A stretch of 64,000 bases of DNA from positions 1-64,000 of the forward strand of contig CM038999.1 in assembly GCA_017499595.2 (NCBI GenBank), written 5' to 3'. The position numbers and the translations under genes are program-made. Below are positions 5,194-33,970 of this stretch, piece after piece. The DNA comes from Psilocybe cubensis (lineage: Eukaryota). Each line of letters starts with the position of its first letter. Within the stretch, counting starts at the first letter, position 1. The notes beneath the pieces were generated by a model. That model was not told the DNA's origin, made no database searches, and was given only the letters and a program-made list of their open reading frames with translations.

Positions 5194-5275
5194 TCTTTCC
5201 ATTTTAACTCCCAGTTTAAACTAGTCGCTCGCACCTCGCTTCGCTCGGTGCTCGCTCCCCCCTAAACCCTAAACC

Positions 5276-5349
5276 CTACTTTCCATTTAACTCCCAGTTT
5301 AAACTAGTCGCTCGCACCTCGCTTCGCTCGGTGCTCGCTCCCCCCCTAA
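5276..5349 (+). mobile_element. 74-bp extremely 5'-truncated retroelement fragment
   Basis: Matches the pLTR terminal segment CTACTTTCCATTT...GCTCCCCCCCTAA of the unit-5 haplotype (23290 onward); telomeric repeats cap its left side. Confidence 0.85.
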
Positions 5350-5944
5350 GCTAACTAAGTCTAACCTTAGTAGGAAGTAAGGTAGGCGTGTGAACTTCCG
5401 AAAGGCATGTGATTGTGAAGGGCCGGATCTAATTTAGTACATGGGAAAAGTTACTTAGTACCTCGGGAAAAGTTCCTTAGTACCGTGGAAACATTTTTGA
5501 TGGACCGGATCATGAACTGTCCAATTAAGATTCACAACAATCAATCAATTGATTATTAGGTAAGGACCCAGGTAAGCTATTTATACTCTTGACATGAGAA
5601 TATTCCCATGTCACGGTTACTCGGAGCCACGTAACCAGAGTATTTTATATCCATGTGATTCACATCACAGTCAATAACCCACGATGTCAAAGAACAAAAG
5701 TGTTGGATCCACTTTTGACAGGTTACCATGTGCCACATCGACCCGTGACACTCTGTTCATCAGAGATCTGTCTAACTTGACAATAAACATTGACAGATTT
5801 GTGATAGTCGGTAAGATACATGACAGCTGCGCAGCATCACTTCACGCGCTGTCATCGGATGTTCCAGAACATTCCTTCTAAGAATAGCCACTGAAGAGTC
5901 TATAAAGACGAAAGGGCTGGCTGCTGATAACAATCAACAGCCCT

Positions 5945-6873
5945 CAAGTACTCGTCCTCTCCCAAACTCCTGCCGCTTGTGCCTTCCCAACTCATCCGGG
6001 AGCCCTTTCGTCACTGATCTTGCCCTTGACTCGGGGACGTTTCATCGACATGTTGGCTGCCTCACGGCAAGCGGGGCCCTTTTTCTTTCACTCGCTCACG
6101 CCTTCTATGTTGGGTTACGGAGGTCATACAAACTCGTTTTAGTCTAGCTGCGGGGTTATCCAGCTATGATGACTTTGTAATTCGAGGGCGCGCAGTTCTT
6201 CAATGGGTATGGACATCAGGTGAGAGTACACTGGGGGTTGTCAGGACCAGCTCTGCTGGATACGCTCCTGGCAAGTCGGTTGCAGCCGGCGACACTACCG
6301 AATTGCTGGGACGTCCTAAAGCTTGTGGGTACCGCCGACCGCTGGAAACAGCCTAGGCACCGGTGGCGACCGGGTATGGTAACAATCCCCAAGATTCAGC
6401 GAAAGCTGGAATGGATAATCAGCAGCGAATCCGTAACGGTCACGCCGACGGAAGCGTTCAACGACTAGGTGGTAGTGGGGTCTTCGGATCTTAAGATATA
6501 GTCTTGGGAGTGGGGAAACCCACATCTGGTATCTAAACCGCGCCTCGCTGCTTACGAGGACGGCCCGAAGTCCAGAACCGCTTAAAACGCGGGTGACCCG
6601 GCCTCCCCTTAGTAAAGGGAGTTAACACAAGGATGGACAAATAGTTCGTCGCCGGAAATGAACCTGTGGCTGTAATGGCTGATGTGGCGCCCCTTGGTAA
6701 AGGGCTTAAAGGGTATTAGCCTGCCATGTCCAATGGCATGAGAGTGTCCCTTGGTAAAGGACTTAATAGGCAATAGCCTGCTCTTTTGTCATGAGCGGTA
6801 TGTAGTGATCGTTTGCCTGTACGGTAGCGCCCATTGCTTGCACTGGTCCACGCCCGTAAAAAATCACGAGCCG
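5945..6873 (+). ncRNA. Group I self-splicing intron (IC1-like, 929 nt, no homing endonuclease ORF) inserted in the hammerhead cleavage triplet
   Basis: Exact insertion relative to empty pLTRs (CAGCCCT|CTGGC): the exon ends in U and the intron ends in G. P AATTGCTGGG 6301; Q AATCAGCAG 6417; R GTTCAACGACTA 6456; S AAGATATAGTC 6493; P3 CACTACC 6293 / GGTAGTG 6471; P9 GAAA-loop hairpin 6510-6523. IGS GGGGTTGT 6234-6241 pairs with exon ACAGCCCT, with U.G at the splice site. Confidence 0.92.
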
Positions 6874-6985
6874 CTGGCCTTCTTTCCATTTAACTCACAG
6901 TTTAAACAAGTCGCTCGCACCTCGCTTCGCTCGGTGCTCGCTCCCCCCCTAAACCCAACGACTTTGCTATTACCCAACAGCTACT

Positions 6986-9900
6986 ATGTCTTCCACTTAC
7001 TCTGCTGCCTTCTCTCGTGCCATGTCCCCCACCCTGGACGCACTCACCCAGGCTGTCGTCAACAACACAGTTTTTGGCGTCAACGACGAAGCTGGCCGCC
7101 ACAACGCCCTCATCGACGAGTTGGCCACTGTCGTCATCAAGAAAATAGCTGAGTGCCGCTCCATTGACCAGATTGTAGACTGCGTCTTTTTTGACTATCG
7201 TGCTGCCCTTAGGGAGTTTCTCCTCAACCTCGCATCGTGGTGCGATAAGAGGGAAACAGTCAAGGCTAGCCTCGAGCGCCTTGAACTTGCCGTTAGCGCA
7301 GGCAACACCCCCAATCGCCTTCGGGTGAAGGCTCCCGAGTTCCAACTTACGAAGGAATTCGCGGATGCCGGGTCAGCGGAAGCTCTTCGAGTTTCCTCTA
7401 CGTTCTCCACCGCTCGTGATGTCTTCCAAAAGGCAATCAACGACGGCGCCATTCAGGCGAAAAAGGACGAACTGGCCTTTTGGGATGATAAATGCGCACT
7501 CAATAACTGTTATGAAGCTGCTGCCCTCATCGTTAAGACAACTTACGATGATCGCAAATCCAGCTATAAGCTCCCCGTTTTCTCTACAGACAACAAGGGA
7601 GTTCGTCGAATAACAGATTGGGTAGTGTCACCGCAGAAGAAGGCTGAATGCAGCGCATTGCAAACCATTTTGCCAGCCATCTTCTCTCATATCAAACAGA
7701 TTGTCAACTTGCGCCACCGCGCTTTGGCAATCAAGATTGAGAAAAAGCGGTCGACTGCGGCAACAGCCGATGTCGAGATGGCCGATGCGACCAAACCAGG
7801 TCCATCGATTCAATCCCTTATTGATAAGGGCTTGAATGCACGTCTCAAGAAGCTCAACCTTGGATCTGTGGGCAAGAAGGCAAGTTCTCGTAACCCTTCA
7901 CCCATAATTCTGGATACTAATTACTATTCTAATTACCCAGACTTTGTCTGGCCAGAATTCGTCCAAGGCTCCTCAACCTCAGGCCAAGAAAGCTGGCCCT
8001 TCGAAATTCAAACCCTCGTCGACGCCTTCGCAGAAGAAGCCCCTAACCAAGGCTTCCAACAAGGTCGACAACAAGAAGAAAGGGAAGGGGAGAGCTCCCG
8101 TCAAGAACGATCCAAAGGGAAAGGGAAAGGCAAGAGCCTAGACGCGCGGTCTAATGTAGTACCTTTTACGTCGGTAAGACCCGCCTTCCCCAACTCTATT
8201 CCTGACGATATACTCACCATGACTAAAACAGACGCAGTTTCTTTTGTACACTTACATACGCCGATCTCATTCTTGTTGGCTGGCCAGTATCGTAGTAGTG
8301 TACACTGTAGTCCTGGTGTGGTGGTCCCTGTAGATATAGCAAATGATTTATCACTCGGACTCAATTATATGTTTTTTACTCTACCTTCTCAAAGTCTGAT
8401 CATGCAAGCATGGAATGATTTTCAACGAAGAATAAGATGGCGTATCTATTTTTTGTTTAAGGAAGGCATGAACAAACCTTTTGATCCAGATTACGGAGTA
8501 AGCTCAAAAAAGAAAGAGAAACCTCCAGTATTACCGCAATACATGGAACTTGGCCTTTCGATGGGACGTCGGTACGTGCAACGCACGATCGCAAGTATCC
8601 CGGAAGAAGCCCTTACGGAGATGCGAAAGCACGCGTTCTCTCCTAAAAGGGACAAGATCCGTAAGTTTCTTATCGATAACAACTATGTTATTACGATGAC
8701 AGATAAGAATCTTGGCCTCGCGGTGTCTGAACGCGACTGGATATTAAGGAATGAGCTCAATCTTCTTGAAGATGAACGTAACTATGAAGAGTTAGAATTC
8801 GAAGTTGCGCAAGAAGTAATGAAGAGCAAAATGATCCAGATGCAAACTCTTGCACGTACCGTCGAAGATGAACATCTGTTTCTATTTGAACTTGGGTTGT
8901 CTCGATTCTTTCTATCGAATGTACCGGAAGACGGATCATCGTTCAAGTATCCTCAATTTCATGGTATACCTAAAATCCACAAAAAACCTACTGGATTTAG
9001 GCCCATAATTCCGTGTCACTCTGTAGTATTTAATCCTGCAGCCAAGTTTGTATCAAAAGAGCTTAAGCCGATTATTAAATCGACTCCTTCAATCATTCAC
9101 GGAACGAAGGATCTCTTTACGAGATTAAGCCAATTGCGTATAGACCCCAAACGACAATGGTATTTTGTCACCGGGGATGTAGTTGCTTTCTATCCCAATA
9201 TTCCGTTGGACTTGTGCATCGAAATCGTTTGTAATATGTACGAGGAATGGTTACTCAACGCTTCGGAAGAAAACACTGCATTAGCCCATATTAATCCAAA
9301 TTCGTTAGAGAATAACTTGGTTAAATTGGGCATCTTTAAACGTGCTATCGAGATTGGCAATACGCAATTGATAACACAACATGGGTCTAGATATTTTAGA
9401 CAAAAAAATGGCCTCGCAATGGGCGTCGCGGATTCTCCGGACCTTGCTAACCTCTTTGGAGCCCATTTTGAAATAAAGTCAAAAATCTTAGACCACCCAA
9501 ACGTGGCCTTCTATGGAAGGTACATCGACGATTGTTTCGCAATTGTTTACGCCGAGTCCGAAGCACTTGCACTTAATCTTATTAAAGAAACAATAAAGTT
9601 CGATGGTTGTGTTATCGAATGGGCTGTTTCCTCGTCGGGATGTCAATTTCTCGATGCTTTCATATTCAAGGAGTCTGGAAAACTTCATTGGAAGCCATTT
9701 GTCAAGACAGGAAACAACCGAGAACGAGTTCCATGGGTATCACATCATCCTTTGGACGTCAAACGTGGCGTCTACATTGGAGAGTTATCCAGGTTAGCCG
9801 TGCTATGTAGTACCAAGGAAATCTACATCGGAGCAATTAGAGACCTTAACGCTCTCTATTTGATGCGCGGTTATCCCGAAAACCTAGTCATGTCTTGGTG

Positions 9901-10516
9901 TAAGAAGAATATACAAGAACGTTGGGAAAAGCGATTCGCTTTACGAGTCGCAGAGCACGACGAATCCATTCTTGTACTTAAAACCAGATTTGATCAGGTA
10001 TGGAATTGGTTTTCAGCTGCTGAACTTGGAAAAACTGTTACCGAGTACTGGTCGGCATGGTATGAACATGCCGAGAAAGGTTTGTATAGTGCAGACTCGT
10101 CCAGACCCCTTATCAAACCAGATCCAAATTACGTTCACGACCTCGATGATGTTCGCCCGGAGCTGTTCACACAGATCCTCGTGGACGGAGAAACTGAGTT
10201 CGTACCGGATTTGAGGAAGATAGGACTACTCGGAAGTCGTTGGATAGTATCGCGAAAACGCAATACTAATCTTTTCGACCTTGCAAATGTGTGGAAGAAA
10301 ACAGTCTTTCGTAAACTGGATGAAGACATCGCTGAAAAAGGTGGTGTTGTTCCCGAAACTCAAAACGTTAATGAAACTTATCATTCTGCTTTAGTTGAAG
10401 CTGCTGAACAGATAAGTATCGAAAGTGATAACGAGATAATACTTCATAGACGTTCAATCTCACAAGAGAGGGAACATCCAGAATTCGGCAGAATATCCAA
10501 ATCTTACAACCGATGA
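6986..10516 (+). CDS. Penelope-like RT polyprotein, 1176 aa; no GIY-YIG endonuclease recognisable
   Basis: RT motifs IPKIHK..FRPII, FVTGDVVAFYPNI, QKNGLAMG, GRYIDD, FLD; PLE-type thumb region (SHHP..VKRG..GELSR). Confidence 0.95.
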   Translation: MSSTYSAAFSRAMSPTLDALTQAVVNNTVFGVNDEAGRHNALIDELATVVIKKIAECRSIDQIVDCVFFDYRAALREFLLNLASWCDKRETVKASLERLELAVSAGNTPNRLRVKAPEFQLTKEFADAGSAEALRVSSTFSTARDVFQKAINDGAIQAKKDELAFWDDKCALNNCYEAAALIVKTTYDDRKSSYKLPVFSTDNKGVRRITDWVVSPQKKAECSALQTILPAIFSHIKQIVNLRHRALAIKIEKKRSTAATADVEMADATKPGPSIQSLIDKGLNARLKKLNLGSVGKKASSRNPSPIILDTNYYSNYPDFVWPEFVQGSSTSGQESWPFEIQTLVDAFAEEAPNQGFQQGRQQEEREGESSRQERSKGKGKGKSLDARSNVVPFTSVRPAFPNSIPDDILTMTKTDAVSFVHLHTPISFLLAGQYRSSVHCSPGVVVPVDIANDLSLGLNYMFFTLPSQSLIMQAWNDFQRRIRWRIYFLFKEGMNKPFDPDYGVSSKKKEKPPVLPQYMELGLSMGRRYVQRTIASIPEEALTEMRKHAFSPKRDKIRKFLIDNNYVITMTDKNLGLAVSERDWILRNELNLLEDERNYEELEFEVAQEVMKSKMIQMQTLARTVEDEHLFLFELGLSRFFLSNVPEDGSSFKYPQFHGIPKIHKKPTGFRPIIPCHSVVFNPAAKFVSKELKPIIKSTPSIIHGTKDLFTRLSQLRIDPKRQWYFVTGDVVAFYPNIPLDLCIEIVCNMYEEWLLNASEENTALAHINPNSLENNLVKLGIFKRAIEIGNTQLITQHGSRYFRQKNGLAMGVADSPDLANLFGAHFEIKSKILDHPNVAFYGRYIDDCFAIVYAESEALALNLIKETIKFDGCVIEWAVSSSGCQFLDAFIFKESGKLHWKPFVKTGNNRERVPWVSHHPLDVKRGVYIGELSRLAVLCSTKEIYIGAIRDLNALYLMRGYPENLVMSWCKKNIQERWEKRFALRVAEHDESILVLKTRFDQVWNWFSAAELGKTVTEYWSAWYEHAEKGLYSADSSRPLIKPDPNYVHDLDDVRPELFTQILVDGETEFVPDLRKIGLLGSRWIVSRKRNTNLFDLANVWKKTVFRKLDEDIAEKGGVVPETQNVNETYHSALVEAAEQISIESDNEIILHRRSISQEREHPEFGRISKSYNR
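7880..7940 (+). other. Putative 61-nt GC-AG spliceosomal intron inside the RT ORF (present in all six units)
   Basis: AAG|GCAAGT donor, TACTAAT/TTCTAAT branch candidates, CCCAG| acceptor. Removal opens a Lys-rich frame ending at TAG 8141. Confidence 0.65.
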
Positions 10517-11225
10517 AAAGAATACTAGCGCGTAAGGCGTAAAGCATTAGAAAAAAACCCTAACCGTAAGTATTCCTTGCTACAAAGTAACAAACATCTA
10601 CTTACAAGCAACACATTGGATTAAATAGCTAAACCTAAACCTAAACCCTAAACCCTAAACCCTAAGCCCTAACCTAACCCCAACCCTAAGCTAACTAAGT
10701 CTAACCTTAGTAGGAAGTAAGGTAGGCGTGTGAACTTCCGAAAGGCATGTGATTGTGAAGGGCCGGATCTAATTTAGTACATGGGAAAAGTTACTTAGTA
10801 CCTCGGGAAAAGTTCCTTAGTACCGTGGAAACATTTTTGATGGACCGGATCATGAACTGTCCAATTAAGATTCACAACAATCAATCAATTGATTATTAGG
10901 TAAGGACCCAGGTAAGCTATTTATACTCTTGACATGAGAATATTCCCATGTCACGGTTACTCGGAGCCACGTAACCAGAGTATTTTATATCCATGTGATT
11001 CACATCACAGTCAATAACCCACGATGTCAAAGAACAAAAGTGTTGGATCCACTTTTGACAGGTTACCATGTGCCACATCGACCCGTGACACTCTGTTCAT
11101 CAGAGATCTGTCTAACTTGACAATAAACATTGACAGATTTGTGATAGTCGGTAAGATACATGACAGCTGCGCAGCATCACTTCACGCGCTGTCATCGGAT
11201 GTTCCAGAACATTCCTTCTAAGAAT

Positions 11226-11289
11226 AGCCACTGAAGAGTCTATAAAGACGAAAGGGCTGGCTGCTGATAACAATCAACAGCCCTCTGGC
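11226..11289 (+). ncRNA. Hammerhead ribozyme (intact, haplotype B), 3' pLTR of unit 2
   Basis: Core and proximal stems identical to 708-772; this is the empty site corresponding to intron 5945-6873. Confidence 0.88.
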
Positions 11290-11963
11290 CTTCTTTCCAT
11301 TTAACTCACAGTTTAAACAAGTCGCTCGCACCTCGCTTCGCTCGGTGCTCGCTCCCCCCCTAAACCTAAACCTAAACCCTAAACCCTAAACCCTAAACCC
11401 TAACCTAACCCCAACCCTAAGCTAACTAAGTCTAACCTTAGTAGGAAGTAAGGTAGGCGTGTGAACTTCCGAACGGCATGTGATTGTGAAGGGCCGGATC
11501 TAATTTAGTACATGGGAAAAGTTACTTAGTACTTCGGGAAAAGTTCCTTAGTACCGTGGAAACATTTTTGATGGACCGGATCATGAACTGTCCAATTAAG
11601 ATTCACAACAATCAATCATTCTATTGTTTGATTGTTAGGTAAGGACCCAGGTAAGCTATTTATACTCTAGACATGTGAATATTCCCATGTCGCGGTTACT
11701 CGGAGCCACGTAACCAGAGTAATCTATATCCATGTGATTCACATCACAGTCAATAACCCACGATGTCAAAGAACAAAAGTGTTGGATCCACTTTTGACAG
11801 GTTACCATGTGCCACATCGACCCGTGACACTCTGTTCATCAGAGACCTGTCTAACTTGACAATAAACATTGACAGATTTGTGATAGTCGGTAAGATACAT
11901 GACAGCTGCGCAGCATCACTTCACGCGCTGTCATCGGATGTCTAGAACATTCCTTCTAAGAAT

Positions 11964-12027
11964 AGCCACTGAAGAGTCTATAAAGACGAAAGGGCTGGTT
12001 GTTGGGATCCCCCAACAGCCCTCTGGC
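11964..12027 (+). ncRNA. Hammerhead ribozyme (intact), 5' pLTR of unit 3
   Basis: Same motif. Confidence 0.88.
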
Positions 12028-12136
12028 CTTCTTTCTATTTCAAACTCACAGTTTAAACTAGTCGCTCGCACCTCGCTTCGCTCGGTGCTCGCTCCCCCCC
12101 TAAACCCAACGACTTTGCTATCACCCATCAGTTACC

Positions 12137-15100
12137 ATGTCATCCCAATACTCTGCTGCATTCTCTCGTGCCATGTCCCCTACCCTGGACGCACTCACCC
12201 AGGCCGTCGTCAACAACACTGTCTTCGGCGTCAACGATGAAGCAGGCCGCCATAACGCTCTTATCGACGAGCTGGCCACTGTGGTCATCAAAAAAATAGC
12301 TGAGTGCCGCTCCGTTGACCAAGTCATAGACTGCGTCTTTTTTGACTATCGTGCTGCCCTCAGGGAGTTTCTCCTCAACCTCGCATCGTGGTGCGACAAG
12401 AGGGAAACAGTCAAGGCTAGCCTCGAGCGCCTTGAATCTGCCGTTAGCGCAGGCAACACGCCCAATCGCCTTAAGGTGAAGGCACCCGAGTTCCAACTTA
12501 CGAAGGAATTCGCGGATGCCGGGTCAGCGGAGGCTCTTCGAGTCTCCACTACGTTCTCTTCCGCTCGTGATGCCTTCCAAAAGGCAATTAACGACGGCGC
12601 CGTTCAGGCGAAAAAGGACGAGCTGGCTTTTTGGGATGATAAATGCGCGCTCAACTCTTGCTACGAAGCTGCTGCCCTCATCGTTAAGGCAACTTACGAT
12701 GATCGCAAATCCAGCTACAAGCTCCCTGTTTTCTCTACAGACAACAAGGGAGTTCGACGTATAGCAGAGTGGGTAGTGTCTCCGCAAAAGAAAGCCGAAT
12801 GCAGTGCGCTGCAAACTATACTGCCGGCGATCTTTTCTCATATCAAACAGATTGTCAACATGCGCCACCGCGCCTTGGCAATTAAGATTGAGAAAAAGCG
12901 GACGACTGCGGCAACAGCCGATGTCGAGATGGCCGATGCGACCAAACCAGGTCCATCGATTCAATCCCTTATTGATAAGGGCTTGAATGCACGTCTCAAA
13001 AAGCTCAACCTTGGATCGGTGGGCAAGAAGGCAAGTTTTCGTAACCCTTCACCCATAATTCTGGACACTAATTATTACTCTAATTACCCAGACTTTGTCT
13101 GGCCAGAATTCGTCCAAGGCTCCTCAACCTCAGGCCAGGAAAGCTGGCCCTTCGAAACCCAAGTCGTCGTCGACGCCTTCGCAGAGGAAGCCTCAAACCA
13201 AGGCTTCCAACAAGGTCGACAACAAGAAGAAAGGGAAGGGGAGAGCTCCCGTCAAGAACAACGATCCAAAGGGAAAGGGAAAGGCAAGAGCCTAGACGCG
13301 CGGTCTACTGTAGCATCATTTACGTCGGTGAGACCCGCCTTCCCCAACTCTATTCCTGACGATATACTCACCATGACTAAAACAGACGCAGTTTCTTTTG
13401 TACACCTCAATACCCCGATTTCATTCTTATTGGCTGGCCAGTATAGATCTAGTGTACACTGTAGTCCTGGTGTTTCGGTCCCTGTTGATGTAGCAAATGA
13501 TTTATCTCTTGGACTCAATTATATGTTTTTTACACTGCCTTCTAAAAATCTGATCATGCAAGCATGGAATGATTTTCAACGAAGAATAAGATGGCGTATC
13601 TATTTTTTGTTTAAAGAAGGCATGAATAAACCTTTCGATCCAGACTATGGAGTAAGCTCTAAAAAGAAAGAGAAACCTCCAATGTTACCGCAATTTATGG
13701 AACTTGGCCTTTCAATGGGACGTCGGTACGTTATTAAAACGATCGCAAGTATCCCGGAAGAAGCCCTTAAAGAGATGCGAAAGCACGCGTTCTCTCCTAA
13801 AAGGGACAAGATCCAAAAGTTTCTTTTCGATAACAACTATGTTATTACGATGACAGATAAGAATCTTGGCCTCGCGGTGTCTGAACGCGACTGGATATTA
13901 AGGAATGAGCTCAATCTTCTTGAAGATGAACGCAACTACGAAGAGTTAGAATTCGAAGTTGCGCAAGAAGTTATGAAGAGCAAAATGATTCAGATGCAAA
14001 CTCTCGCACGTACCGTCGAAGATGAACATCTGTTTCTATTTGAACTTGGGTTGTCTCGATTCTTTCTATCGAATGTACCGGAAGATGGATCATCGTTCAA
14101 GTATCCTCAATTTCATGGTATACCTAAAATCCACAAGAAACCTACTGGATTTAGGCCCATAATTCCGTGTCACTCTGTAGTATTTAATCCTGCAGCCAAG
14201 TTTGTATCAAAAGAGCTTAAGCCGATTATTAAATCGACTCCTTCAATCATTCACGGAACGAAGGATCTCTTTACGAGATTAAGCCAATTGCGTATAGACC
14301 CCAAACGACAATGGTATTTTGTCACCGGGGATGTAGTTGCTTTCTATCCCAATATTCCGTTGGACTTGTGCATCGAAATCGTTTGTAATATGTACGAGGA
14401 ATGGTTACTCAACGCTTCGGAAGAGAACACTGCATTAGCCCATATTAATCCAAATTCGTTAGAGAATAACTTGGTTAAATTGGGCATCTTTAAACGTGCT
14501 ATCGAGATTGGCAATACGCAATTGATAACACAACATGGGTCTAGATATTTTAGACAAAAAAATGGCCTCGCAATGGGCGTCGCGGATTCTCCGGACCTTG
14601 CTAACCTCTTTGGAGCCCATTTTGAAATAAAGTCAAAAATCTTAGACCACCCAAACGTGGCCTTCTATGGAAGGTACATCGACGATTGTTTCGCAATTGT
14701 TTACGCCGAGTCCGAAGCACTTGCACTTAATCTTATTAAAGAAACAATAAAGTTCGATGGTTGTGTTATCGAATGGGCTGTTTCCTCGTCGGGATGTCAA
14801 TTTCTCGATGCTTTCATATTCAAGGAGTCTGGAAAACTTCATTGGAAGCCATTTGTCAAGACAGGAAACAACCGAGAACGAGTTCCATGGGTATCACATC
14901 ATCCTTTGGACGTCAAACGTGGCGTCTACATTGGAGAGTTATCCAGGTTAGCCGTGCTATGTAGTACCAAGGAAATCTACATCGGAGCAATTAGAGACCT
15001 TAACGCTCTCTATTTGATGCGCGGTTATCCCGAAAACCTAGTCATGTCTTGGTGTAAGAAGAATATACAAGAACGTTGGGAAAAGCGATTCGCTTTACGA

Positions 15101-15670: not shown

Positions 15671-16386
15671 AAAGAATACTAGCGCGTAAGGCGTAAAGCA
15701 TTAGAAAAAAACCCTAACCGTAAGTATTCCTTGCTACAAAGTAACAAACATCTACTTACAAGCAACACATTGGATTAAATAGCTAAACCTAAACCTAAAC
15801 CCTAAACCCTAAACCCTAAACCCTAACCTAACCCCAACCCTAAGCTAACTAAGTCTAACCTTAGTAGGAAGTAAGGTAGGCGTGTGAACTTCCGAACGGC
15901 ATGTGATTGTGAAGGGCCGGATCTAATTTAGTACATGGGAAAAGTTACTTAGTACTTCGGGAAAAGTTCCTTAGTACCGTGGAAACATTTTTGATGGACC
16001 GGATCATGAACTGTCCAATTAAGATTCACAACAATCAATCATTCTATTGTTTGATTGTTAGGTAAGGACCCAGGTAAGCTATTTATACTCTAGACATGTG
16101 AATATTCCCATGTCGCGGTTACTCGGAGCCACGTAACCAGAGTAATCTATATCCATGTGATTCACATCACAGTCAATAACCCACGATGTCAAAGAACAAA
16201 AGTGTTGGATCCACTTTTGACAGGTTACCATGTGCCACATCGACCCGTGACACTCTGTTCATCAGAGACCTGTCTAACTTGACAATAAACATTGACAGAT
16301 TTGTGATAGTCGGTAAGATACATGACAGCTGCGCAGCATCACTTCACGCGCTGTCATCGGATGTCTAGAACATTCCTTCTAAGAAT

Positions 16387-16450
16387 AGCCACTGAAGAGT
16401 CTATAAAGACGAAAGGGCTGGTTGTTGGGATCCCCCAACAGCCCTCTGGC
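16387..16450 (+). ncRNA. Hammerhead ribozyme (intact), 3' pLTR of unit 3
   Basis: Same motif. Confidence 0.88.
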
Positions 16451-18127: not shown

Positions 18128-18239
18128 CTGGCCTTCTTTCCATTTAACTCACAGTTTAAACAAGTCGCTCGCACCTCGCTTCGCTCGGTGCTCGCTCCCC
18201 CCCTAAACCCAACGACTTTGCTATTACCCAACAGCTACT

Positions 18240-22479: not shown

Positions 22480-22543
22480 AGCCACTGAAGAGTCTATAAA
22501 GACGAAAGGGCTGGCTGCTGATAACAATCAACAGCCCTCTGGC
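22480..22543 (+). ncRNA. Hammerhead ribozyme (intact, haplotype B), 3' pLTR of unit 4
   Basis: Same motif. Confidence 0.88.
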
Positions 22544-23225: not shown

Positions 23226-23292
23226 TAGCCACTGAAGAGTCTATAAAGACGAAAGGGCTGGTTGTTGGGATCCCCCAACAGCCCTCTGGCTA
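23226..23292 (+). ncRNA. Hammerhead ribozyme (intact; 6-bp stem I TAGCCA/TGGCTA), 5' pLTR of unit 5
   Basis: Same core. Confidence 0.88.
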
Positions 23293-23396
23293 CTTTCCAT
23301 TTAACTCCCAGTTTAAACTAGTCGCTCGCACCTCGCTTCGCTCGGTGCTCGCTCCCCCCCTAAACCCAACGACTTTGCTATTATCCATCAGCCACT

Positions 23397-26300: not shown

Positions 26301-26927
26301 ATATCTTGGTGTAAGAAGAATATACAAGAACGTTGGGAAAAGCGATTCGCTTTACGAGTCGCAGAGCACGACGAATCCATTCTTGTACTTAAAACCAGAT
26401 TTGATCAGGTATGGAATTGGTTTTCAGCTGCTGAACTTGGAAAAACTGTTACCGAGTACTGGTCGGCATGGTATGAACATGCCGAGAAAGGTTTGTATAG
26501 TGCAGACTCGTCCAGACCCCTTATCAAACCAGATCCAAATTACGTTCACGACCTCGATGATGTTCGCCCGGAGCTGTTCACACAGATCCTCGTGGACGGA
26601 GAAACTGAGTTCGTACCGGATTTGAGGAAGATAGGACTACTCGGAAGTCGTTGGATAGTATCGCGAAAACGCAATACTAATCTTTTCGACCTTGCAAATG
26701 TGTGGAAGAAAACAGTCTTTCGTAAACTGGATGAAGACATCGCTGAAAAAGGTGGTGTTGTTCCCGAAACTCAAAACGTTAATGAAACTTATCATTCTGC
26801 TTTAGTTGAAGCTGCTGAGCAGATAAGTATCGAAAGTGATAACGAGATAATACTTCATAGACGTTCAATCTCACAAGAGAGGGAACATCCAGAATTTGGC
26901 AGAATATCCAAATCTTACAACCGATGA
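23397..26927 (+). CDS. Penelope-like RT polyprotein, 1176 aa
   Basis: Intact ORF with the same RT motifs. Confidence 0.95.
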   Translation: MSSQYSAAFSRAMSPTLDALTQAVVNNTVFGVNDEAGRHNALIDELATVVIKKIAECRSVDQVIDCVFFDYRAALREFLLNLASWCDKRETVKASLERLESAVSAGNTPNRLKVKAPEFQLTKEFADAGSAEALRVSTTFSTARDAFQKAINDGAIQAKKDELTFWDDKCALNSCYEAAALIVKATYDDRKSSYKLPVFSTDNKGVRRIAEWVVSPQKKAECSALQTILPAIFSHIKQIVNMRHRALAIKIEKKRTTAATADVEMADATKPGPSIQSLIDKGLNARLKKLNLGSVGKKASFRNPSPIILDTNYYSNYPDFVWPEFVQGSSTSGQESWPFETQVVVDAFATQASNQGFQQGRQQEEREGESSRQERSKGKGKGKSLDARSNVVPFTSVRPAFPNSIPDDILTMTKTDAVSFVHLHTPISFLLAGQYRSSVHCSPGVSVPVDVANDLSLGLNYMFFTLPSKSLIMQAWNDFQRRIRWRIYFLFKEGMNKPFDPDYGVSSKKKEKPPVLPQYMELGLSMGRRYVQRTIASIPEEALTEMRKHAFSPKRDKIRKFLIDNNYVITMTDKNLGLAVSERDWILRNELNLLEDERNYEELEFEVAQEVMKSKMIQMQTLARTVEDEHLFLFELGLSRFFLSNVPEDGSSFKYPQFHGIPKIHKKPTGFRPIIPCHSVVFNPAAKFVSKELKPIIKSTPSIIHGTKDLFTRLSQLRIDSKRQWYFVTGDVVAFYPNIPLDLCIEIVCSMYEEWLLNASEENTALAHINPNSLENNLVKLGIFKRAIEIGNTQLITQHGSRYFRQKNGLAMGVADSPDLANLFGAHFEIKSKILDHPNVAFYGRYIDDCFAIVYAESEALALNLIKETIKFDGCVIEWAVSSSGCQFLDAFIFKESGKLHWKPFVKTGNNRERVPWVSHHPLDVKRGVYIGELSRLAVLCSTKEIYIGAIRDLNALYLMRGYPENLVISWCKKNIQERWEKRFALRVAEHDESILVLKTRFDQVWNWFSAAELGKTVTEYWSAWYEHAEKGLYSADSSRPLIKPDPNYVHDLDDVRPELFTQILVDGETEFVPDLRKIGLLGSRWIVSRKRNTNLFDLANVWKKTVFRKLDEDIAEKGGVVPETQNVNETYHSALVEAAEQISIESDNEIILHRRSISQEREHPEFGRISKSYNR

Positions 26928-27642
26928 AAAGAATACTAGCGCTTAAGGCGTAAAGCATTAGAAAAAAACCCTAACCGTAAGTATTCCTTGCTATAAAGTA
27001 ACAAACATCTACTTACAAGCAACACATTGGATTGAATAGCTAAACCTAAACCTAAACCCTAAACCCTAAACCCTAAACCCTAACCTAACCCCAACCCTAA
27101 GCTAACTAAGTCTAACCTTAGTAGGAAGTAAGGTAGGCGTGTGAACTTCCGAACGGCATGTGATTGTGAAGGGCCGGATCTAATTTAGTACATGGGAAAA
27201 GTTACTTAGTACTTCGGGAAAAGTTCCTTAGTACCGTGGAAACATTTTTGATGGACCGGATCATGAACTGTCCAATTAAGATTCACAACAATCAATCATT
27301 CTATTGTTTGATTGTTAGGTAAGGACCCAGGTAAGTTATTTATACTCTAGACATGTGAATATTCCCATGTCGCGGTTACTCGGAGCCACGTAACCAGAGT
27401 AATCTATATCCATGTGATTCACATCACAGTCAATAACCCACGATGTCAAAGAACAAAAATGTTGGATCCACTTTTGACAGGTTACCATGTGCCACATCGA
27501 CCCGTGACACTCTGTTCATCAGAGACCTGTCTAACTTGACAATAAACATTGACAGATTTGTGATAGTCGGTAAGATACATGACAGCTGCGCAGCATCACT
27601 TCACGCGCTGTCATCGGATGTCTAGAACATTCCTTCTAAGAA

Positions 27643-27709
27643 TAGCCACTGAAGAGTCTATAAAGACGAAAGGGCTGGTTGTTGGGATCCCCCAACAGCC
27701 CTCTGGCTA
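27643..27709 (+). ncRNA. Hammerhead ribozyme (intact), 3' pLTR of unit 5
   Basis: Same motif. Confidence 0.88.
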
Positions 27710-28453
27710 CTTTCCATTTAACTCCCAGTTTAAACTAGTCGCTCGCACCTCGCTTCGCTCGGTGCTCGCTCCCCCCCTAAACCCTAAACCCTAACCCTAA
27801 ACCTAAACCCTAAACCCTAAACCCTAAACCCTAACCTAACCCCAACCCTAAGCTAACTAAGTCTAACCTTAGTAGGAAGTAAGGTAGGCGTGTGAACTTC
27901 CGAACGGCATGTGATTGTGAAGGGCCGGATCTAATTTAGTACATGGGAAAAGTTACTTAGTACTTCGGGAAAAGTTCCTTAGTACCGTGGAAACATTTTT
28001 GATGGACCGGATCATGAACTGTCCAATTAAGATTCACAACAATCAATCATTCTATTGTTTGATTGTTAGGTAAGGACCCAGGTAAGCTATTTATACTCTA
28101 GACATGTGAATATTCCCATGTCGCGGTTACTCGGAGCCACGTAACCAGAGTAATCTATATCCATGTGATTCACATCACAGTCAATAACCCACGATGTCAA
28201 AGAACAAAAGTGTTGGATCCACTTTTGACAGGTTACCATGTGCCACATCGACCCGTGACACTCTGTTCATCAGAGACCTGTCTAACTTGACAATAAACAT
28301 TGACAGATTTGTGATAGTCGGTAAGATACATGACAGCTGCGCAGCATCACTTCACGCGCTGTCATCGGATGTCTAGAACATTCCTTCTAAGAATAGCCAC
28401 TGAAGAGTCTATAAAGACGAAAGGGCTGGTTGTTGGGATCCCCCAACAGCCCT

Positions 28454-29382
28454 CAAGTACTCGTCCTCTCCCAAACTCCTGCCGCTTGTGCCTTCCCAAC
28501 TCATCCGGGAGCCCTTTCGTCACTGATCTTGCCCTTGACTCGGGGACGTTTCATCGACATGTTGGCTGCCTCACGGCAAGCGGGGCCCTTTTTCTTTCAC
28601 TCGCTCACGCCTTCTATGTTGGGTTACGGAGGTCATACAAACTCGTTTTAGTCTAGCTGCGGGGTTATCCAGCTATGATGACTTTGTAATTCGAGGGCGC
28701 GCAGTTCTTCAATGGGTATGGACATCAGGTGAGAGTACACTGGGGGTTGTCAGGACCAGCTCTGCTGGATACGCTCCTGGCAAGTCGGTTGCAGCCGGCG
28801 ACACTACCGAATTGCTGGGACGTCCTAAAGCTTGTGGGTACCGCCGACCGCTGGAAACAGCCTAGGCACCGGTGGCGACCGGGTATGGTAACAATCCCCA
28901 AGATTCAGCGAAAGCTGGAATGGATAATCAGCAGCGAATCCGTAACGGTCACGCCGACGGAAGCGTTCAACGACTAGGTGGTAGTGGGGTCTTCGGATCT
29001 TAAGATATAGTCTTGGGAGTGGGGAAACCCACATCTGGTATCTAAACCGCGCCTCGCTGCTTACGAGGACGGCCCGAAGTCCAGAACCGCTTAAAACGCG
29101 GGTGACCCGGCCTCCCCTTAGTAAAGGGAGTTAACACAAGGATGGACAAATAGTTCGTCGCCGGAAATGAACCTGTGGCTGTAATGGCTGATGTGGCGCC
29201 CCTTGGTAAAGGGCTTAAAGGGTATTAGCCTGCCATGTCCAATGGCATGAGAGTGTCCCTTGGTAAAGGACTTAATAGGCAATAGCCTGCTCTTTTGTCA
29301 TGAGCGGTATGTAGTGATCGTTTGCCTGTACGGTAGCGCCCATTGCTTGCACTGGTCCACGCCCGTAAAAAATCACGAGCCG
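28454..29382 (+). ncRNA. Group I intron copy 3 (929 nt) in the hammerhead cleavage triplet
   Basis: Same sequence and junctions, here in a haplotype-A pLTR. Confidence 0.92.
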
Positions 29383-29496
29383 CTGGCCTTCTTTCTATTT
29401 CAAACTCACAGTTTAAACTAGTCGCTCGCACCTCGCTTCGCTCGGTGCTCGCTCCCCCCCTAAACCCAACGACTTTGCTATCACCCATCAGTTACC

Positions 29497-32400
29497 ATGT
29501 CATCCCAATACTCTGCTGCATTCTCTCGTGCCATGTCCCCTACCCTGGACGTACTCACCCAGGCCGTCGTCAACAACACTGTCTTCGGCGTCAACGATGA
29601 AGCAGGCCGCCATAACGCTCTTATCGACGAGCTGGCCACTGTGGTCATCAAAAAAATAGCTGAGTGCCGCTCCGTTGACCAAGTCATAGACTGCGTCTTT
29701 TTTGACTATCGTGCTGCCCTCAGGGAGTTTCTCCTCAACCTCGCATCGTGGTGCGACAAGAGGGAAACAGTCAAGGCTAGCCTCGAGCGCCTTGAATCTG
29801 CCGTTAGCGCAGGCAACACGCCCAATCGCCTTAAGGTGAAGGCACCCGAGTTCCAACTTACGAAGGAATTCGCGGATGCCGGGTCAGCGGAGGCTCTTCG
29901 AGTCTCCACTACGTTCTCTTCCGCTCGTGATGCCTTCCAAAAGGCAATTAACGACGGCGCCGTTCAGGCGAAAAAGGACGAGCTGGCTTTTTGGGATGAT
30001 AAATGCGCGCTCAACTCTTGCTACGAAGCTGCTGCCCTCATCGTTAAGGCAACTTACGATGATCGCAAATCCAGCTACAAGCTCCCTGTTTTCTCTACAG
30101 ACAACAAGGGAGTTCGACGTATAGCAGAGTGGGTAGTGTCTCCGCAAAAGAAAGCCGAATGCAGTGCGCTGCAAACTATACTGCCGGCGATCTTTTCTCA
30201 TATCAAACAGATTGTCAACATGCGCCACCGCGCCTTGGCAATTAAGATTGAGAAAAAGCGGACGACTGCGGCAACAGCCGATGTCGAGATGGCCGATGCG
30301 ACCAAACCAGGTCCATCGATTCAATCCCTTATTGATAAGGGCTTGAATGCACGTCTCAAAAAGCTCAACCTTGGATCTGTGGGCAAGAAGGCAAGTTTTC
30401 GTAACCCTTCACCCATAATTCTGGACACTAATTATTACTCTAATTACCCAGACTTTGTCTGGCCAGAATTCGTCCAAGGCTCCTCAACCTCAGGCCAGGA
30501 AAGCTGGCCCTTCGAAACCCAAGTCGTCGTCGACGCCTTCGCAGAGGAAGCCTCAAACCAAGGCTTCCAACAAGGTCGACAACAAGAAGAAAGGGAAGGG
30601 GAGAGCTCCCGTCAAGAACAACGATCCAAAGGGAAAGGGAAAGGCAAGAGCCTAGACGCGCGGTCTACTGTAGCATCATTTACGTCGGTGAGACCCGCCT
30701 TCCCCAACTCTATTCCTGACGATATACTCACCATGACTAAAACAGACGCAGTTTCTTTTGTACACCTCAATACCCCGATTTCATTCTTATTGGCTGGCCA
30801 GTATAGATCTAGTGTACACTGTAGTCCTAGTGTTTCGGTCCCTGTTGATGTAGCAAATGATTTATCTCTTGGACTCAATTATATGTTTTTTACACTGCCT
30901 TCTAAAAATCTGATCATGCAAGCATGGAATGATTTTCAACGAAGAATAAGATGGCGTATCTATTTTTTGTTTAAAGAAGGCATGAATAAACCTTTCGATC
31001 CAGACTATGGAGTAAGCTCTAAAAAGAAAGAGAAACCTCCAATGTTACCGCAATTTATGGAACTTGGCCTTTCAATGGGACGTCGGTACGTTATTAAAAC
31101 GATCGCAAGTATCCCGGAAGAAGCCCTTAAAGAGATGCGAAAGCACGCGTTCTCTCCTAAAAGGGACAAGATCCAAAAGTTTCTTTTCGATAACAACTAT
31201 GTTATTACGATGACAGATAAGAATCTTGGCCTCGCGGTGTCTGAACGCGACTGGATATTAAGGAATGAGCTCAATCTTCTTGAAGATGAACGCAACTACG
31301 AAGAGTTAGAATTCGAAGTTGCGCAAGAAGTTATGAAGAGCAAAATGATTCAGATGCAAACTCTCGCACGTACCGTCGAAGATGAACATCTGTTTCTATT
31401 TGAACTTGGGTTGTCTCGATTCTTTCTATCGAATGTACCGGAAGACGGATCATCGTTCAAGTATCCTCAATTTCATGGTATACCTAAAATCCACAAGAAA
31501 CCTACTGGATTTAGGCCCATAATTCCGTGTCACTCTGTAGTATTTAATCCTGCAGCCAAGTTTGTATCAAAAGAGCTTAAGCCGATTATTAAATCGACTC
31601 CTTCAATCATTCACGGAACGAAGGATCTCTTTACGAGATTAAGCCAATTGCGTATAGACCCCAAACGACAATGGTATTTTGTCACCGGGGATGTAGTTGC
31701 TTTCTATCCCAATATTCCGTTGGACTTGTGCATCGAAATCGTTTGTAATATGTACGAGGAATGGTTACTCAACGCTTCGGAAGAGAACACTGCATTAGCC
31801 CATATTAATCCAAATTCGTTAGAGAATAACTTGGTTAAATTGGGCATCTTTAAACGTGCTATCGAGATTGGCAATACGCAATTGATAACACAACATGGGT
31901 CTAGATATTTTAGACAAAAAAATGGCCTCGCAATGGGCGTCGCGGATTCTCCGGACCTTGCTAACCTCTTTGGAGCCCATTTTGAAATAAAGTCAAAAAT
32001 CTTAGACCACCCAAACGTGGCCTTCTATGGAAGGTACATCGACGATTGTTTCGCAATTGTTTACGCCGAGTCCGAAGCACTTGCACTTAATCTTATTAAA
32101 GAAACAATAAAGTTCGATGGTTGTGTTATCGAATGGGCTGTTTCCTCGTCGGGATGTCAATTTCTCGATGCTTTCATATTCAAGGAGTCTGGAAAACTTC
32201 ATTGGAAGCCATTTGTCAAGACAGGAAACAACCGAGAACGAGTTCCATGGGTATCACATCATCCTTTGGACGTCAAACGTGGCGTCTACATTGGAGAGTT
32301 ATCCAGGTTAGCCGTGCTATGTAGTACCAAGGAAATCTACATCGGAGCAATTAGAGACCTTAACGCTCTCTATTTGATGCGCGGTTATCCCGAAAACCTA

Positions 32401-33030
32401 GTCATGTCTTGGTGTAAGAAGAATATACAAGAACGTTGGGAAAAGCGATTCGCTTTACGAGTCGCAGAGCACGACGAATCCATTCTTGTACTTAAAACCA
32501 GATTTGATCAGGTATGGAATTGGTTTTCAGCTGCTGAACTTGGAAAGACTGTTACCGAGTACTGGTCGGCATGGTATGAACATGCCGAGAAAGGTCTGTA
32601 TAGTGCAGACTCGTCCAGACCCCTTATCAAACCAGATCCAAATTACGTTCACGACCTCGATGATGTTCGCCCGGAGCTGTTCACACAGATCCTCGTGGAC
32701 GGAGAAACTGAGTTCGTACCGGATTTGAGGAAGATAGGACTACTCGGAAGTCGTTGGATAGTATCGCGAAAGCGCAATACTAATCTTTTCGACCTTGCAA
32801 ATGTGTGGAAGAAAACAGTCTTTCGTAAACTGGATGAAAACATCGCTGAAAAAGGTGGTGTTGTTCCCGAAACTCAAAACGTTAATGAAACTTATCATTC
32901 TGCTCTAGTTGAAGCTGCTGAACAGATAAGTATCGAAAGTGATAACGAGATAATACTTCATAGACGTTCAATCTCACAAGAGAGGGAACATCCAGAATTC
33001 GGCAGAATATCCAAATCTTACAACCGATGA
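29497..33030 (+). CDS. Penelope-like RT polyprotein, 1177 aa
   Basis: Intact ORF with the same RT motifs. Confidence 0.95.
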   Translation: MSSQYSAAFSRAMSPTLDVLTQAVVNNTVFGVNDEAGRHNALIDELATVVIKKIAECRSVDQVIDCVFFDYRAALREFLLNLASWCDKRETVKASLERLESAVSAGNTPNRLKVKAPEFQLTKEFADAGSAEALRVSTTFSSARDAFQKAINDGAVQAKKDELAFWDDKCALNSCYEAAALIVKATYDDRKSSYKLPVFSTDNKGVRRIAEWVVSPQKKAECSALQTILPAIFSHIKQIVNMRHRALAIKIEKKRTTAATADVEMADATKPGPSIQSLIDKGLNARLKKLNLGSVGKKASFRNPSPIILDTNYYSNYPDFVWPEFVQGSSTSGQESWPFETQVVVDAFAEEASNQGFQQGRQQEEREGESSRQEQRSKGKGKGKSLDARSTVASFTSVRPAFPNSIPDDILTMTKTDAVSFVHLNTPISFLLAGQYRSSVHCSPSVSVPVDVANDLSLGLNYMFFTLPSKNLIMQAWNDFQRRIRWRIYFLFKEGMNKPFDPDYGVSSKKKEKPPMLPQFMELGLSMGRRYVIKTIASIPEEALKEMRKHAFSPKRDKIQKFLFDNNYVITMTDKNLGLAVSERDWILRNELNLLEDERNYEELEFEVAQEVMKSKMIQMQTLARTVEDEHLFLFELGLSRFFLSNVPEDGSSFKYPQFHGIPKIHKKPTGFRPIIPCHSVVFNPAAKFVSKELKPIIKSTPSIIHGTKDLFTRLSQLRIDPKRQWYFVTGDVVAFYPNIPLDLCIEIVCNMYEEWLLNASEENTALAHINPNSLENNLVKLGIFKRAIEIGNTQLITQHGSRYFRQKNGLAMGVADSPDLANLFGAHFEIKSKILDHPNVAFYGRYIDDCFAIVYAESEALALNLIKETIKFDGCVIEWAVSSSGCQFLDAFIFKESGKLHWKPFVKTGNNRERVPWVSHHPLDVKRGVYIGELSRLAVLCSTKEIYIGAIRDLNALYLMRGYPENLVMSWCKKNIQERWEKRFALRVAEHDESILVLKTRFDQVWNWFSAAELGKTVTEYWSAWYEHAEKGLYSADSSRPLIKPDPNYVHDLDDVRPELFTQILVDGETEFVPDLRKIGLLGSRWIVSRKRNTNLFDLANVWKKTVFRKLDENIAEKGGVVPETQNVNETYHSALVEAAEQISIESDNEIILHRRSISQEREHPEFGRISKSYNR

Positions 33031-33740
33031 AAAGAATACTAGCGCGTAAGGCGTAAAGCATTAGAAAAAAACCCTAACCGTAAGTATTCCTTGCTATAAA
33101 GTAACAAACATCTACTTACAAGCAACACTTTGGATTAAATAGCTAAACCTAAACCCTAAACCCTAAACCCTAAACCCTAACCTAACCCCAACCCTAAGCT
33201 AACTAAGTCTAACCTTAGTAGGAAGTAAGGTAGGCGTGTGAACTTCCGAACGGCATGTGATTGTGAAGGGCCGGATCTAATTTAGTACATGGGAAAAGTT
33301 ACTTAGTACTTCGGGAAAAGTTCCTTAGTACCGTGGAAACATTTTTGATGGACCGGATCATGAACTGTCCAATTAAGATTCACAACAATCAATCATTCTA
33401 TTGTTTGATTGTTAGGTAAGGACCCAGGTAAGCTATTTATACTCTAGACATGTGAATATTCCCATGTCGCGGTTACTCGGAGCCACGTAACCAGAGTAAT
33501 CTATATCCATGTGATTCACATCACAGTCAATAACCCACGATGTCAAAGAACAAAAGTGTTGGATCCACTTTTGACAGGTTACCATGTGCCACATCGACCC
33601 GTGACACTCTGTTCATCAGAGACCTGTCTAACTTGACAATAAACATTGACAGATTTGTGATAGTCGGTAAGATACATGACAGCTGCGCAGCATCACTTCA
33701 CGCGCTGTCATCGGATGTCTAGAACATTCCTTCTAAGAAT

Positions 33741-33804
33741 AGCCACTGAAGAGTCTATAAAGACGAAAGGGCTGGTTGTTGGGATCCCCCAACAGCCCTC
33801 TGGC
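33741..33804 (+). ncRNA. Hammerhead ribozyme (intact), 3' pLTR of unit 6
   Basis: Same motif. Confidence 0.88.
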
Positions 33805-33874
33805 CTTCTTTCTATTTCAAACTCACAGTTTAAACTAGTCGCTCGCACCTCGCTTCGCTCGGTGCTCGCTCCCC

Positions 33875-33970
33875 CCCTAAACCCTAAACCCTAAACCCTA
33901 AACCCTAAACCCTAAACCCTAAACCCTAAACCCTAACCCTAAACCCTAAACCCTAAACCCTAAACCCTAA
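33875..33970. repeat. Interstitial telomeric tract (former chromosome end)
   Basis: About 13 CCCTAAA units. Confidence 0.95.

Follow-up and report, generated by a model that had tools for sequence, protein, structure and literature searches.

In this study, we examined the first 64,000 nucleotides (nt) of contig CM038999.1 of Psilocybe cubensis (GenBank assembly GCA_017499595.2, forward strand), hereafter the window, in which a head-to-tail array of Penelope-like retrotransposons occupies positions 159–35684. We found that a 929-nt group I intron interrupts the upstream pseudo-long terminal repeat (pLTR) of three units of the array and none of its other pLTRs. The intron sits within a predicted hammerhead ribozyme, is the same in two retrotransposon lineages whose flanking sequences differ, and has homologs upstream of the coding region in related elements from metagenomes. 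The reading that we favor, at a probability of roughly 0.45, is a joint one, in which the units were added one after another to the chromosome end by an endonuclease-less Penelope-like (Coprina-type) retrotransposon and the intron moved at the RNA level, by splicing or reverse splicing followed by copying with the element's own reverse transcriptase (RT).

The intron and its distribution in the array

Fourteen pLTR copies were recovered from the window by BLAST with pieces of unit 2, namely the upstream and downstream pLTRs of six full units, a solo pLTR and the downstream pLTR of a seventh, truncated unit. The insertion is present in the upstream pLTRs of units 2, 4 and 6 (5945–6873, 17199–18127 and 28454–29382, respectively, all on the plus strand) and the other 11 pLTRs are without it; a 913-nt test piece of the insertion had three BLAST matches in the window, all in those same upstream pLTRs. 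The original prediction, which was made from the sequence of the window and placed the intron in the 5′ pLTRs of units 2, 4 and 6 but not in units 1, 3 and 5 or in any 3′ pLTR, is thus borne out by both the BLAST matches and the junctions. All three copies were matched by the Rfam model RF00028 (73, 73 and 70.9 bits; gathering score, 50), and the conserved core of the first copy spans 6148–6525. The junctions of all three read GCCCT/CAAG...AGCCG/CTGG, the slash marking the splice site, and the one shared C leaves a 1-nt ambiguity of the boundary that the group I rule resolves to a 5′ exon ending in U, an intron running from C to G and a 3′ exon starting with C. The 11 intron-less pLTRs read ...CAACAGCCCTC/TGGC..., which is exactly the sequence of the ligated exons, and the nucleotide-exact presence or absence that had been claimed is therefore real. 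Judged by its sequence, the insertion is a genuine group I intron, and we infer that it is self-splicing.

No stop-free frame lying wholly inside the intron is longer than 108 amino acids (aa), and the seven frames compared with Pfam gave no match with E < 0.1; therefore, the intron appears to encode no homing endonuclease, in agreement with the earlier view of it. A candidate internal guide sequence (6232–6241 in the first copy, intron positions 290–297) pairs with the window exon over 8 + 2 base pairs (bp), which implies a P1 loop of 285 nt, and the duplex energy of this pairing is −16.3 kcal/mol vs. −8.3 kcal/mol for an alternative site.

For the window alone, in which units 2 and 4 are near-duplicates, the presence of the intron in three of six upstream pLTRs and in none of the eight others gives a one-sided Fisher P of 0.055. 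Its presence in alternate units, to which the original prediction drew attention, is likewise a true pattern, but perfect alternation with three carriers among six units has a chance probability of 2/20 = 0.1, which is not beyond chance, and carries no signal. A higher-order repeat of two units was considered as a cause of the alternation and rejected, since the tracts between units all differ and units 3 and 5 differ at 97 sites of the open reading frame (ORF).

The host element

Each full unit (5.1–6.1 kb) is composed, in order, of a telomere-like tract (T), a pLTR of ~690 nt, a 30-nt leader, an ORF of 1176–1177 aa, ~110 nt, a second T and a second pLTR, and the 5′ ends of the units point to the chromosome end. 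The downstream pLTR of each unit ends in ...GCTCCCCCCCTAAACC, and each unit closes with the pLTR end CCCTAAACC. The T between the ORF tail and the downstream pLTR was found in every unit, and each unit's own variant of it recurs upstream of the upstream pLTR. That the upstream T and pLTR repeat the unit's own downstream T variant and pLTR implies that some template jump or re-copying is part of the normal cycle of the element. After removal of the intron, the two pLTRs of a unit match without a single mismatch in five units and with one in unit 5, and the pLTRs of different lineages differ at 6–31 positions. There are at least five pLTR variants, represented by unit 1, by units 2 and 4 with the solo pLTR, by units 3 and 6, by unit 5 and by unit 7, which split into two classes, A and B, by the loop of helix III of the hammerhead described below. 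The two haplotypes of the original prediction are therefore a simplification, although the intron does occur in both pLTR classes.

The ORF product is 97–100% identical to UniRef/NCBI proteins named Psilocybe cubensis, one of which is entitled "Reverse transcriptase domain-containing protein." It has a further 185 matches, whose identity ranges from 69% down to ~35% among the 120 matches listed, and a Lentinula edodes protein is 37% identical to it. Two motifs, T572-D-K-N-L-G577 and Y843-G-R-x-I-D-D849, do not vary among 16 aligned sequences, and DKN/DKG is a motif of Penelope-like element RTs (PMC13159263). A Pfam scan of the ORF gave no family at E up to 10, and a profile search against the PDB gave only the Drt3a RT, at E = 0.24. 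By these motifs, the ORF encodes a Penelope-like RT with the DKN motif and a YxDD-type catalytic motif. A GIY-YIG endonuclease was not found in the ORF, which is weak evidence as it rests on Pfam giving no match at all. The features that characterize endonuclease-deficient Penelope-like elements were all found in the window, namely a terminal site, head-to-tail arrays with telomere repeats, pLTRs, and a hammerhead with a telomere complement at the 3′ end, and the architecture is as described for the endonuclease-deficient elements Coprina and Athena in three reports (PMC8557442, PMC6431247, PMC13159263).

Identical introns in diverged lineages

The introns of unit 2 (class A) and unit 6 (class B) have no differences in 929 nt, and that of unit 4 has a single private change, at intron position 212. 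The flanks of the introns of units 2 and 6 differ by 3–4.5%, with eight differences in 24 nt upstream, the nearest at −11, and with downstream differences from +14. At the divergence of the pLTRs, about 28–42 differences are expected in 929 nt and the probability of finding none is 1e-12; at the lowest divergence in the element (0.6%), this probability is still 0.004. The insertion is accordingly exact and without co-conversion of the flank markers nearest to it, those at −11 and +14, and we consider that the intron has, on this comparison, moved between lineages recently and with no more than 10 nt of upstream and 13 nt of downstream flank.

A second comparison is that of units 3 and 6, whose near-identity despite their difference in intron state had been pointed out in the original prediction. 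Their pLTRs have 0 mismatches and their ORFs eight differences in ~3534 positions, which is indicative of a recent change of intron state between the two units. Blocks of the ORF have also been exchanged within the family. In codons 1–600, units 2 and 6 are separated by 78 synonymous and 38 non-synonymous differences, as opposed to nine and one, respectively, in codons 601–1177, so that most of the divergence between lineages is held by the N-terminal half while the RT half is nearly identical. Several lineages also contribute to the mosaic ORF of unit 5. The element family thus recombines frequently.

Insertion within a predicted hammerhead ribozyme

A scan of metagenome contigs with a profile of the ORF yielded 80 related loci with 31–67% protein identity. 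The most conserved stretch of the pLTR across these relatives is a type I hammerhead, ~85 nt upstream of the telomere-complementary end, which in the downstream pLTR of unit 2 is predicted at 11219–11299 (plus strand) with its U-C cleavage site at 11285/11286. Its parts are a helix I of GCCA/UGGC plus AAGAA/UUCUU, the motif CUGAAGA, a helix II with its loop (GUC-UAUAAA-GAC), the motif GAAA and a long helix III (GGGCUG...CAGCCC), followed by U-C and the cleavage site. It was located by eye and with a purpose-built descriptor, which detected it in 11 of the 14 window pLTRs (all of the intron-less ones), detected 35 hammerheads in 31 of the 80 related loci, each on the same strand as the ORF, and detected none in shuffled sequences. 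The Rfam hammerhead models gave no match to E = 1 in a whole unit of the window. The pairs of helix I covary among lineages (GCCA/UGGC, GGAC/GUCC, AGGA/UCCU and others), eight of them being changed on both sides, with a covariation score that was matched by one of 500 shuffles. In addition, the A15.1-U16.1 pair is kept in all 16 aligned sequences, and the helix III changes that distinguish the two pLTR classes of the window compensate each other. With its core (CUGANGA ... GAAA ... UH) and three helices in the right order, the structure is predicted to be a hammerhead of type I. Fungal Penelope-like hammerheads with a large helix III are known, one from Serpula having been described to cleave in vitro (PMC4209133), and in telomeric Penelope-like elements the reverse-complement telomere repeats, which pair with the G-overhang, adjoin the hammerhead (PMC6431247).

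The intron is inserted between U16.1 and C17, at most 1 nt from the cleavage site, so that it leaves the catalytic core on one side and, on the other, the 3′ strand of helix I and the telomere complement 85 nt downstream. The last 7–8 nt of the 5′ exon, which are the target of the intron guide, are also the 3′ strand of helix III; the energy of the helix III hairpin is −11 to −17 kcal/mol and that of the candidate P1 duplex is −16 kcal/mol. This location of the insertion site within the hammerhead, which had escaped the original prediction, is most likely the key to the upstream-only pattern.

A separate observation concerns loop II of the hammerhead, which is a TATA-like motif (TATAAAG, TATTTAA, TTTTATA and similar) that lies at the same place in every pLTR of the window (11242–11253 in the copy above). 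It is 40–46 nt upstream of the cleavage site and was seen in 34 of the 35 hammerheads of the related loci, which suggests a second role for loop II in the promoter, the start of transcription being close to the cleavage site.

Related introns in metagenome elements

Homologous introns were identified in five of the 80 related loci (L073, which has two, L077, L065, L052 and L071) with an iterated nhmmer profile of the intron core, and all of them are on the ORF strand, downstream of the hammerhead and upstream of an ORF start. Rfam at its curated threshold gave two matches, both in L073 (72.8 and 76.5 bits), in one set of 19 loci and none in another of 20, the other 41 loci having been searched by nhmmer only; the other four introns were matched by Rfam with E = 4e-7 to 1e-4, below the curated threshold. 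The intron cores are 55–72% identical to one another across the family.

The decisive relative is L073, whose two pLTRs are only 82.7% identical and thus not to be confused by an assembler. Its upstream pLTR has an 845-nt intron with the same boundaries as in the window (U/C...G/C), and its downstream pLTR runs through the corresponding site without a break. The protein of L073 is only 31% identical to that of the window ORF. The site of the intron relative to the hammerhead cut is −1 in the window and +12/13 for this first intron of L073, as fixed by the locus's own intron-less downstream pLTR. Two others are placed without an intron-less comparator, at an estimated position of about +5 for L077 and beyond the pLTR tail motif for L065. 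At the aligned guide position, L077 has a 7 + 1 bp match with its own, different exon, and L073 has no match there. From the spread of sites and cores, this is an old intron family that has changed its site within the leaders of these elements.

A candidate for an intron in a downstream pLTR, that of L077, was rejected as a leader and ORF start follow the intron, and contigs of short reads can collapse identical pLTRs. The 35 hammerheads of the relatives are followed by an ORF start 82–144 nt away without an intron in 18 cases (upstream type), by telomere-like sequence 46–106 nt away without an intron in 13 (downstream type), by the contig end in two and by an intron in two. None of the 13 downstream-type hammerheads in the relatives is followed by an intron. 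Pooled with the window, introns are present at 8 of 29 upstream and 0 of 21 downstream positions (Fisher P = 0.008, with rows that are not all independent), and it is only with the relatives added that the upstream/downstream contrast becomes convincing.

Two further observations were made on these loci. A second group I intron of L073 (8160–8900; 76.5 bits) appears to lie beside the start codon, a few codons inside the RT ORF, as placed without an intron-less comparator, and its core is 61% identical to that of the first intron of the same locus. In L052, the contig ends (1–173 and 6577–6749) are exact repeats of each other; one unit with a single pLTR may have been assembled as if in tandem or in a circle, or two pLTRs may have been collapsed into one.

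How the intron may move

Potentially, transcription through the upstream pLTR yields RNAs whose 5′ leader includes the intron. Were the intron to splice itself out before the RT of the element copied the RNA onto the telomere, the new unit would have an intron-less upstream pLTR and the loss would be exact, and unit 3 could have arisen in this manner from a donor like unit 6. Unit 6 is the older of the two given that the array grows outward; the direction of the change between these units is only suggested by that order. If the RNA were copied unspliced, the intron would be inherited, as may have happened from unit 4 to unit 2. Conversely, an excised intron may enter intron-less transcripts of another lineage by reverse splicing at their ligated site, ACAGCCCU/C, whereupon the same RT would fix it in DNA, producing an exact gain with no co-converted flanks. 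Reverse splicing also predicts changes of intron site such as those among the relatives, which template switching cannot make.

The restriction to upstream pLTRs is most likely a filter on templates. In the RNA, the downstream pLTR would supply the hammerhead fold beside the telomere complement that primes on the G-overhang; an intron there would break the hammerhead and shift it 929 nt from the telomere complement, so that such RNAs would not serve as templates. A complete hammerhead would, in addition, lock the target strand in helix III and hide it from the intron guide sequence. Thus, the exclusion of the intron from downstream pLTRs is probably due to the need for an intact hammerhead and telomere-complement end. 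We extend this more tentatively to the relatives, for which it is possible that a family of endonuclease-less group I introns colonized the 5′ leaders of fungal telomeric Penelope-like retrotransposons, spreading by reverse splicing with a borrowed RT and telomere attachment.

Several points weigh against these proposals. The introns of L073 and L077 lie 5–13 nt past the cleavage site and leave helix I largely intact; the argument from a broken hammerhead, in its strict form, therefore holds only for the family in the window, and that from spacing is the one that applies to L073 and L077. Among the relatives, L073 alone is unambiguous, as short-read metagenome contigs can collapse pLTRs. The minimum-free-energy fold of the hammerhead region was an alternative fold and not a three-way junction, and the 5′ 285 nt of the intron would make an unusually large P1 loop. 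Under some models for the regeneration of the upstream pLTR, an intron located there would not be passed on at all. Finally, template switching by the RT must be active, since lineages recombine often (the 78 vs. nine split of synonymous differences and the mosaic unit 5), and it could move the intron without reverse splicing.

The last point leads to the one serious rival, which we regard as unlikely but by some distance the best of the alternatives: a forced copy-choice in which the RT, on running out of template at a natural RNA end, carries on along a sister RNA. The RT would come to the 5′ end that hammerhead cleavage leaves on an intron-less RNA of class B, 1–2 nt from the intron site, continue on an unspliced class A RNA through the intron and, at the 5′ end of that RNA, a transcription start a few nt upstream of the splice site, jump to the downstream pLTR of a class B RNA. 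Such a route would be RNA-mediated and RT-dependent yet it would be recombination and not integration catalyzed by the intron, and it could build the chimera seen in unit 6. The block-wise exchange of ORFs between lineages is evident, the hammerhead cleavage site coincides with the start of the 3′ exon, the copying of each unit's downstream set into its upstream pLTR and T is in line with such jumps, and a start of transcription within ~10 nt of the splice site is conceivable given the TATA-like loop II. However, the position of that start is an assumption, two jumps are needed that are confined to windows of 10 and 13 nt, and a run-off on a splicing intermediate would add bases, of which none were seen at the junctions. 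Moreover, copy-choice cannot shift the intron to a new site, whereas the homologous introns of the relatives are at several sites with guides that match the local exon. The RNA-level loss or gain through the host RT put forward in the original prediction is supported in part by the group I identity of the intron, its exact absence, the RT of the host and the island of identity, although these data accommodate gain and loss, and reverse splicing and template switching, alike.

It is improbable, in our assessment, that the pattern is due to vertical inheritance with loss only, i.e., a single ancestral entry after which the intron was inherited unspliced, was lost at times by splicing and remained identical by constraint. 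Loss by splicing does explain the exact absences and the order from unit 6 (older) to unit 3 (younger), and the intron in the same region of L073, with its 31% protein identity, indicates that the association is old. Nevertheless, this explanation has to account for 0 of 929 differences between lineages with 3–4.5% flank divergence and 78 synonymous codon differences in the 5′ halves of their ORFs. Constraint on every base of 929 nt is implausible, the substitution in unit 4 shows that change is possible, and intron sites differ among the relatives.

About as improbable is an artefact of assembly or polishing, by which the order of the array, the intron states or the identity of the introns would result from mis-joined or cross-polished repeats. 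An array of 36 kb made of near-identical units does invite such errors. Against this, the two pLTRs and two T tracts of each unit agree and the unit-specific junction tracts are consistent, cross-polishing would have homogenized the flanks too, and the upstream-only arrangement is also present in the unrelated contig L073.

The least probable is DNA-level recombination or gene conversion between pLTRs, by unequal exchange or break-induced replication, either within the array or from one chromosome end to another, an alternative that the original prediction had kept in view and that subtelomeric arrays, which do recombine and whose units are here 95–99.9% alike, make reasonable to consider, but which the island of identity counts strongly against: it fits poorly because, with flanks differing from −11 and +14 and the intron at 0 of 929, both ends of a conversion tract would need to fall no more than 10 and 13 nt outside a 929-nt heterology. 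Nor is there a two-unit repeat (the inter-unit tracts all differ, each repeating its own unit's T variant), and such recombination offers no explanation for the absence of the intron from 21 downstream-type pLTRs.

Relation to known systems

Nuclear group I introns are described as confined to ribosomal DNA (rDNA) in three reviews (PMC3679873, PMC8395846, PMC9223047), and the first of these gives reverse splicing as a proposed route to new sites, while stating that the reverse transcription and integration steps of that pathway are still without evidence (PMC3679873). The rDNA introns (IC1/IE-type, from Tetrahymena, Didymium, and fungal and lichen rDNA) resemble the window intron in having the RF00028 core, U at −1 and a terminal G, and many of them also have no endonuclease gene; they have a guide that pairs with the 5′ exon, for which the window intron has a candidate. 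In contrast to them, the window intron is in the leader of a telomeric retrotransposon, far from any rRNA gene of the window, is 929 nt long with ~285 nt from the 5′ splice site to the candidate guide, and has a host RNA that is itself a template for reverse transcription. Group II retrohoming is similar to the proposed route as it also spreads a ribozyme intron by reverse splicing and then reverse transcription; however, in group II the intron itself encodes the RT and DNA is the target of reverse splicing, whereas here the RT would be that of the host element and the proposed target is RNA.

Coprina of fungi and Athena/Terminons of rotifers share with the window element the terminal head-to-tail arrays with telomere repeats, the 5′ truncations capped by repeats and the pLTRs, and also the hammerhead beside reverse-complement telomere repeats at the 3′ end (PMC6431247, PMC8557442). 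They differ in that no group I intron is mentioned in the searchable texts on them, and in the full-text literature at large, as far as it is searchable, we found no report of a group I intron in a Penelope-like element. A further parallel is offered by Penelope and Chlamys-3_cRei, which have an intron in the 5′ untranslated region, inside the pLTR and past the start of transcription, that is kept in the retroelement (PMC8557442). Those introns are spliceosomal, whereas the window intron is a predicted self-splicing ribozyme that is polymorphic for presence and interrupts another ribozyme.

If an intron family did colonize the leaders of these elements in this way, it would be the first natural case of a complete pathway of RNA-level mobility of the kind long postulated for group I introns, and, within the searches made, the first nuclear group I introns outside rDNA. 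Splicing would then rebuild a second ribozyme, the hammerhead, and could switch the transcript between an intact mRNA and a cut template. A group I intron nested in a hammerhead is a new arrangement with obvious regulatory potential, by which Penelope-like elements gain a third kind of feature related to RNA catalysts. Since the host RNA is reverse-transcribed and integrated, carrier and empty copies of one lineage are adjacent and identical introns reside in diverged hosts, the question of reverse splicing is directly testable in a culturable fungus.

The array and its surroundings

The left end of the window is the chromosome end, as it opens with 21 ACCCTAA repeats (1–147), a telomere repeat of the TTTAGGG type. 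The array that follows, all on the plus strand, is composed of six full units, one solo 5′-truncated pLTR and one unit truncated within its ORF, and the short telomere-like tracts that join the units differ in length.

Unit 1 (159–5269) is the most distal and hence presumably the youngest, and both of its pLTRs (159–847 and 4580–5269) are intron-less. Its broken ORF region (878–4417) has six extra single- or double-base insertions, frameshifts and many stops; its donor may already have been defective, or the assembly may have lower accuracy at this terminus. Between units 1 and 2 (5269–5349), the usual telomere-like tract is replaced by two telomere repeats and an extra, partial 75-nt pLTR tail (5275–5349), which starts 9 nt past the hammerhead cleavage site and looks like an aborted addition.

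In unit 2 (class A), the intron-bearing upstream pLTR (5344–6955), as delimited by BLAST and its junctions, is followed by the ORF (6986–10516; 1176 aa, with the motif at 843–849 reading YGRYIDD, and no endonuclease domain found), the internal T (10629–10683) and the intron-less downstream pLTR (10684–11366), which has 0 mismatches to the upstream pLTR minus the intron. Unit 3 (11415–16530; class B) has two intron-less pLTRs (11415–12106 and 15838–16530) and an intact ORF (12137–15670). Unit 4 (16598–22621; class A) is a near-copy of unit 2, with an intron-bearing upstream pLTR (16598–18209), an ORF (18240–21770) and an intron-less downstream pLTR (21938–22621). Unit 5 (22678–27784; class B) has its mosaic ORF (23397–26927) between two intron-less pLTRs (22678–23366 and 27095–27784), and unit 6 (27846–33884; class B), whose pLTRs are identical to those of unit 3, has an intron-bearing upstream pLTR (27846–29466), an ORF (29497–33030) and an intron-less downstream pLTR (33192–33884). 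The solo pLTR (33969–34303; class A) starts at pLTR position 350, is intron-less and has telomere repeats on both sides. Unit 7 (34336–35595) is 5′-truncated within the ORF, of which positions 3122–3531 are left, and ends in an intron-less downstream pLTR (34913–35595). Telomere repeats continue after it to 35684, beyond which the DNA is unique and subtelomeric.

The usual telomere repeat in fungi is TTAGGG. In the window, the telomere and all of the inter-unit tracts have the 7-mer CCCTAAA (TTTAGGG), and among the related metagenome elements the 7-mer is present in L003, L009, L010, L047, L048, L051, L054 and L061 and the 6-mer in L020, L023 and L050. The remainder of the window includes tandem repeats of the GGAAGTGCAG type at 50191–50362 and, in the unique subtelomeric region, a NACHT/NPHP3_N (NLR-like) gene on the minus strand (59201–61487).

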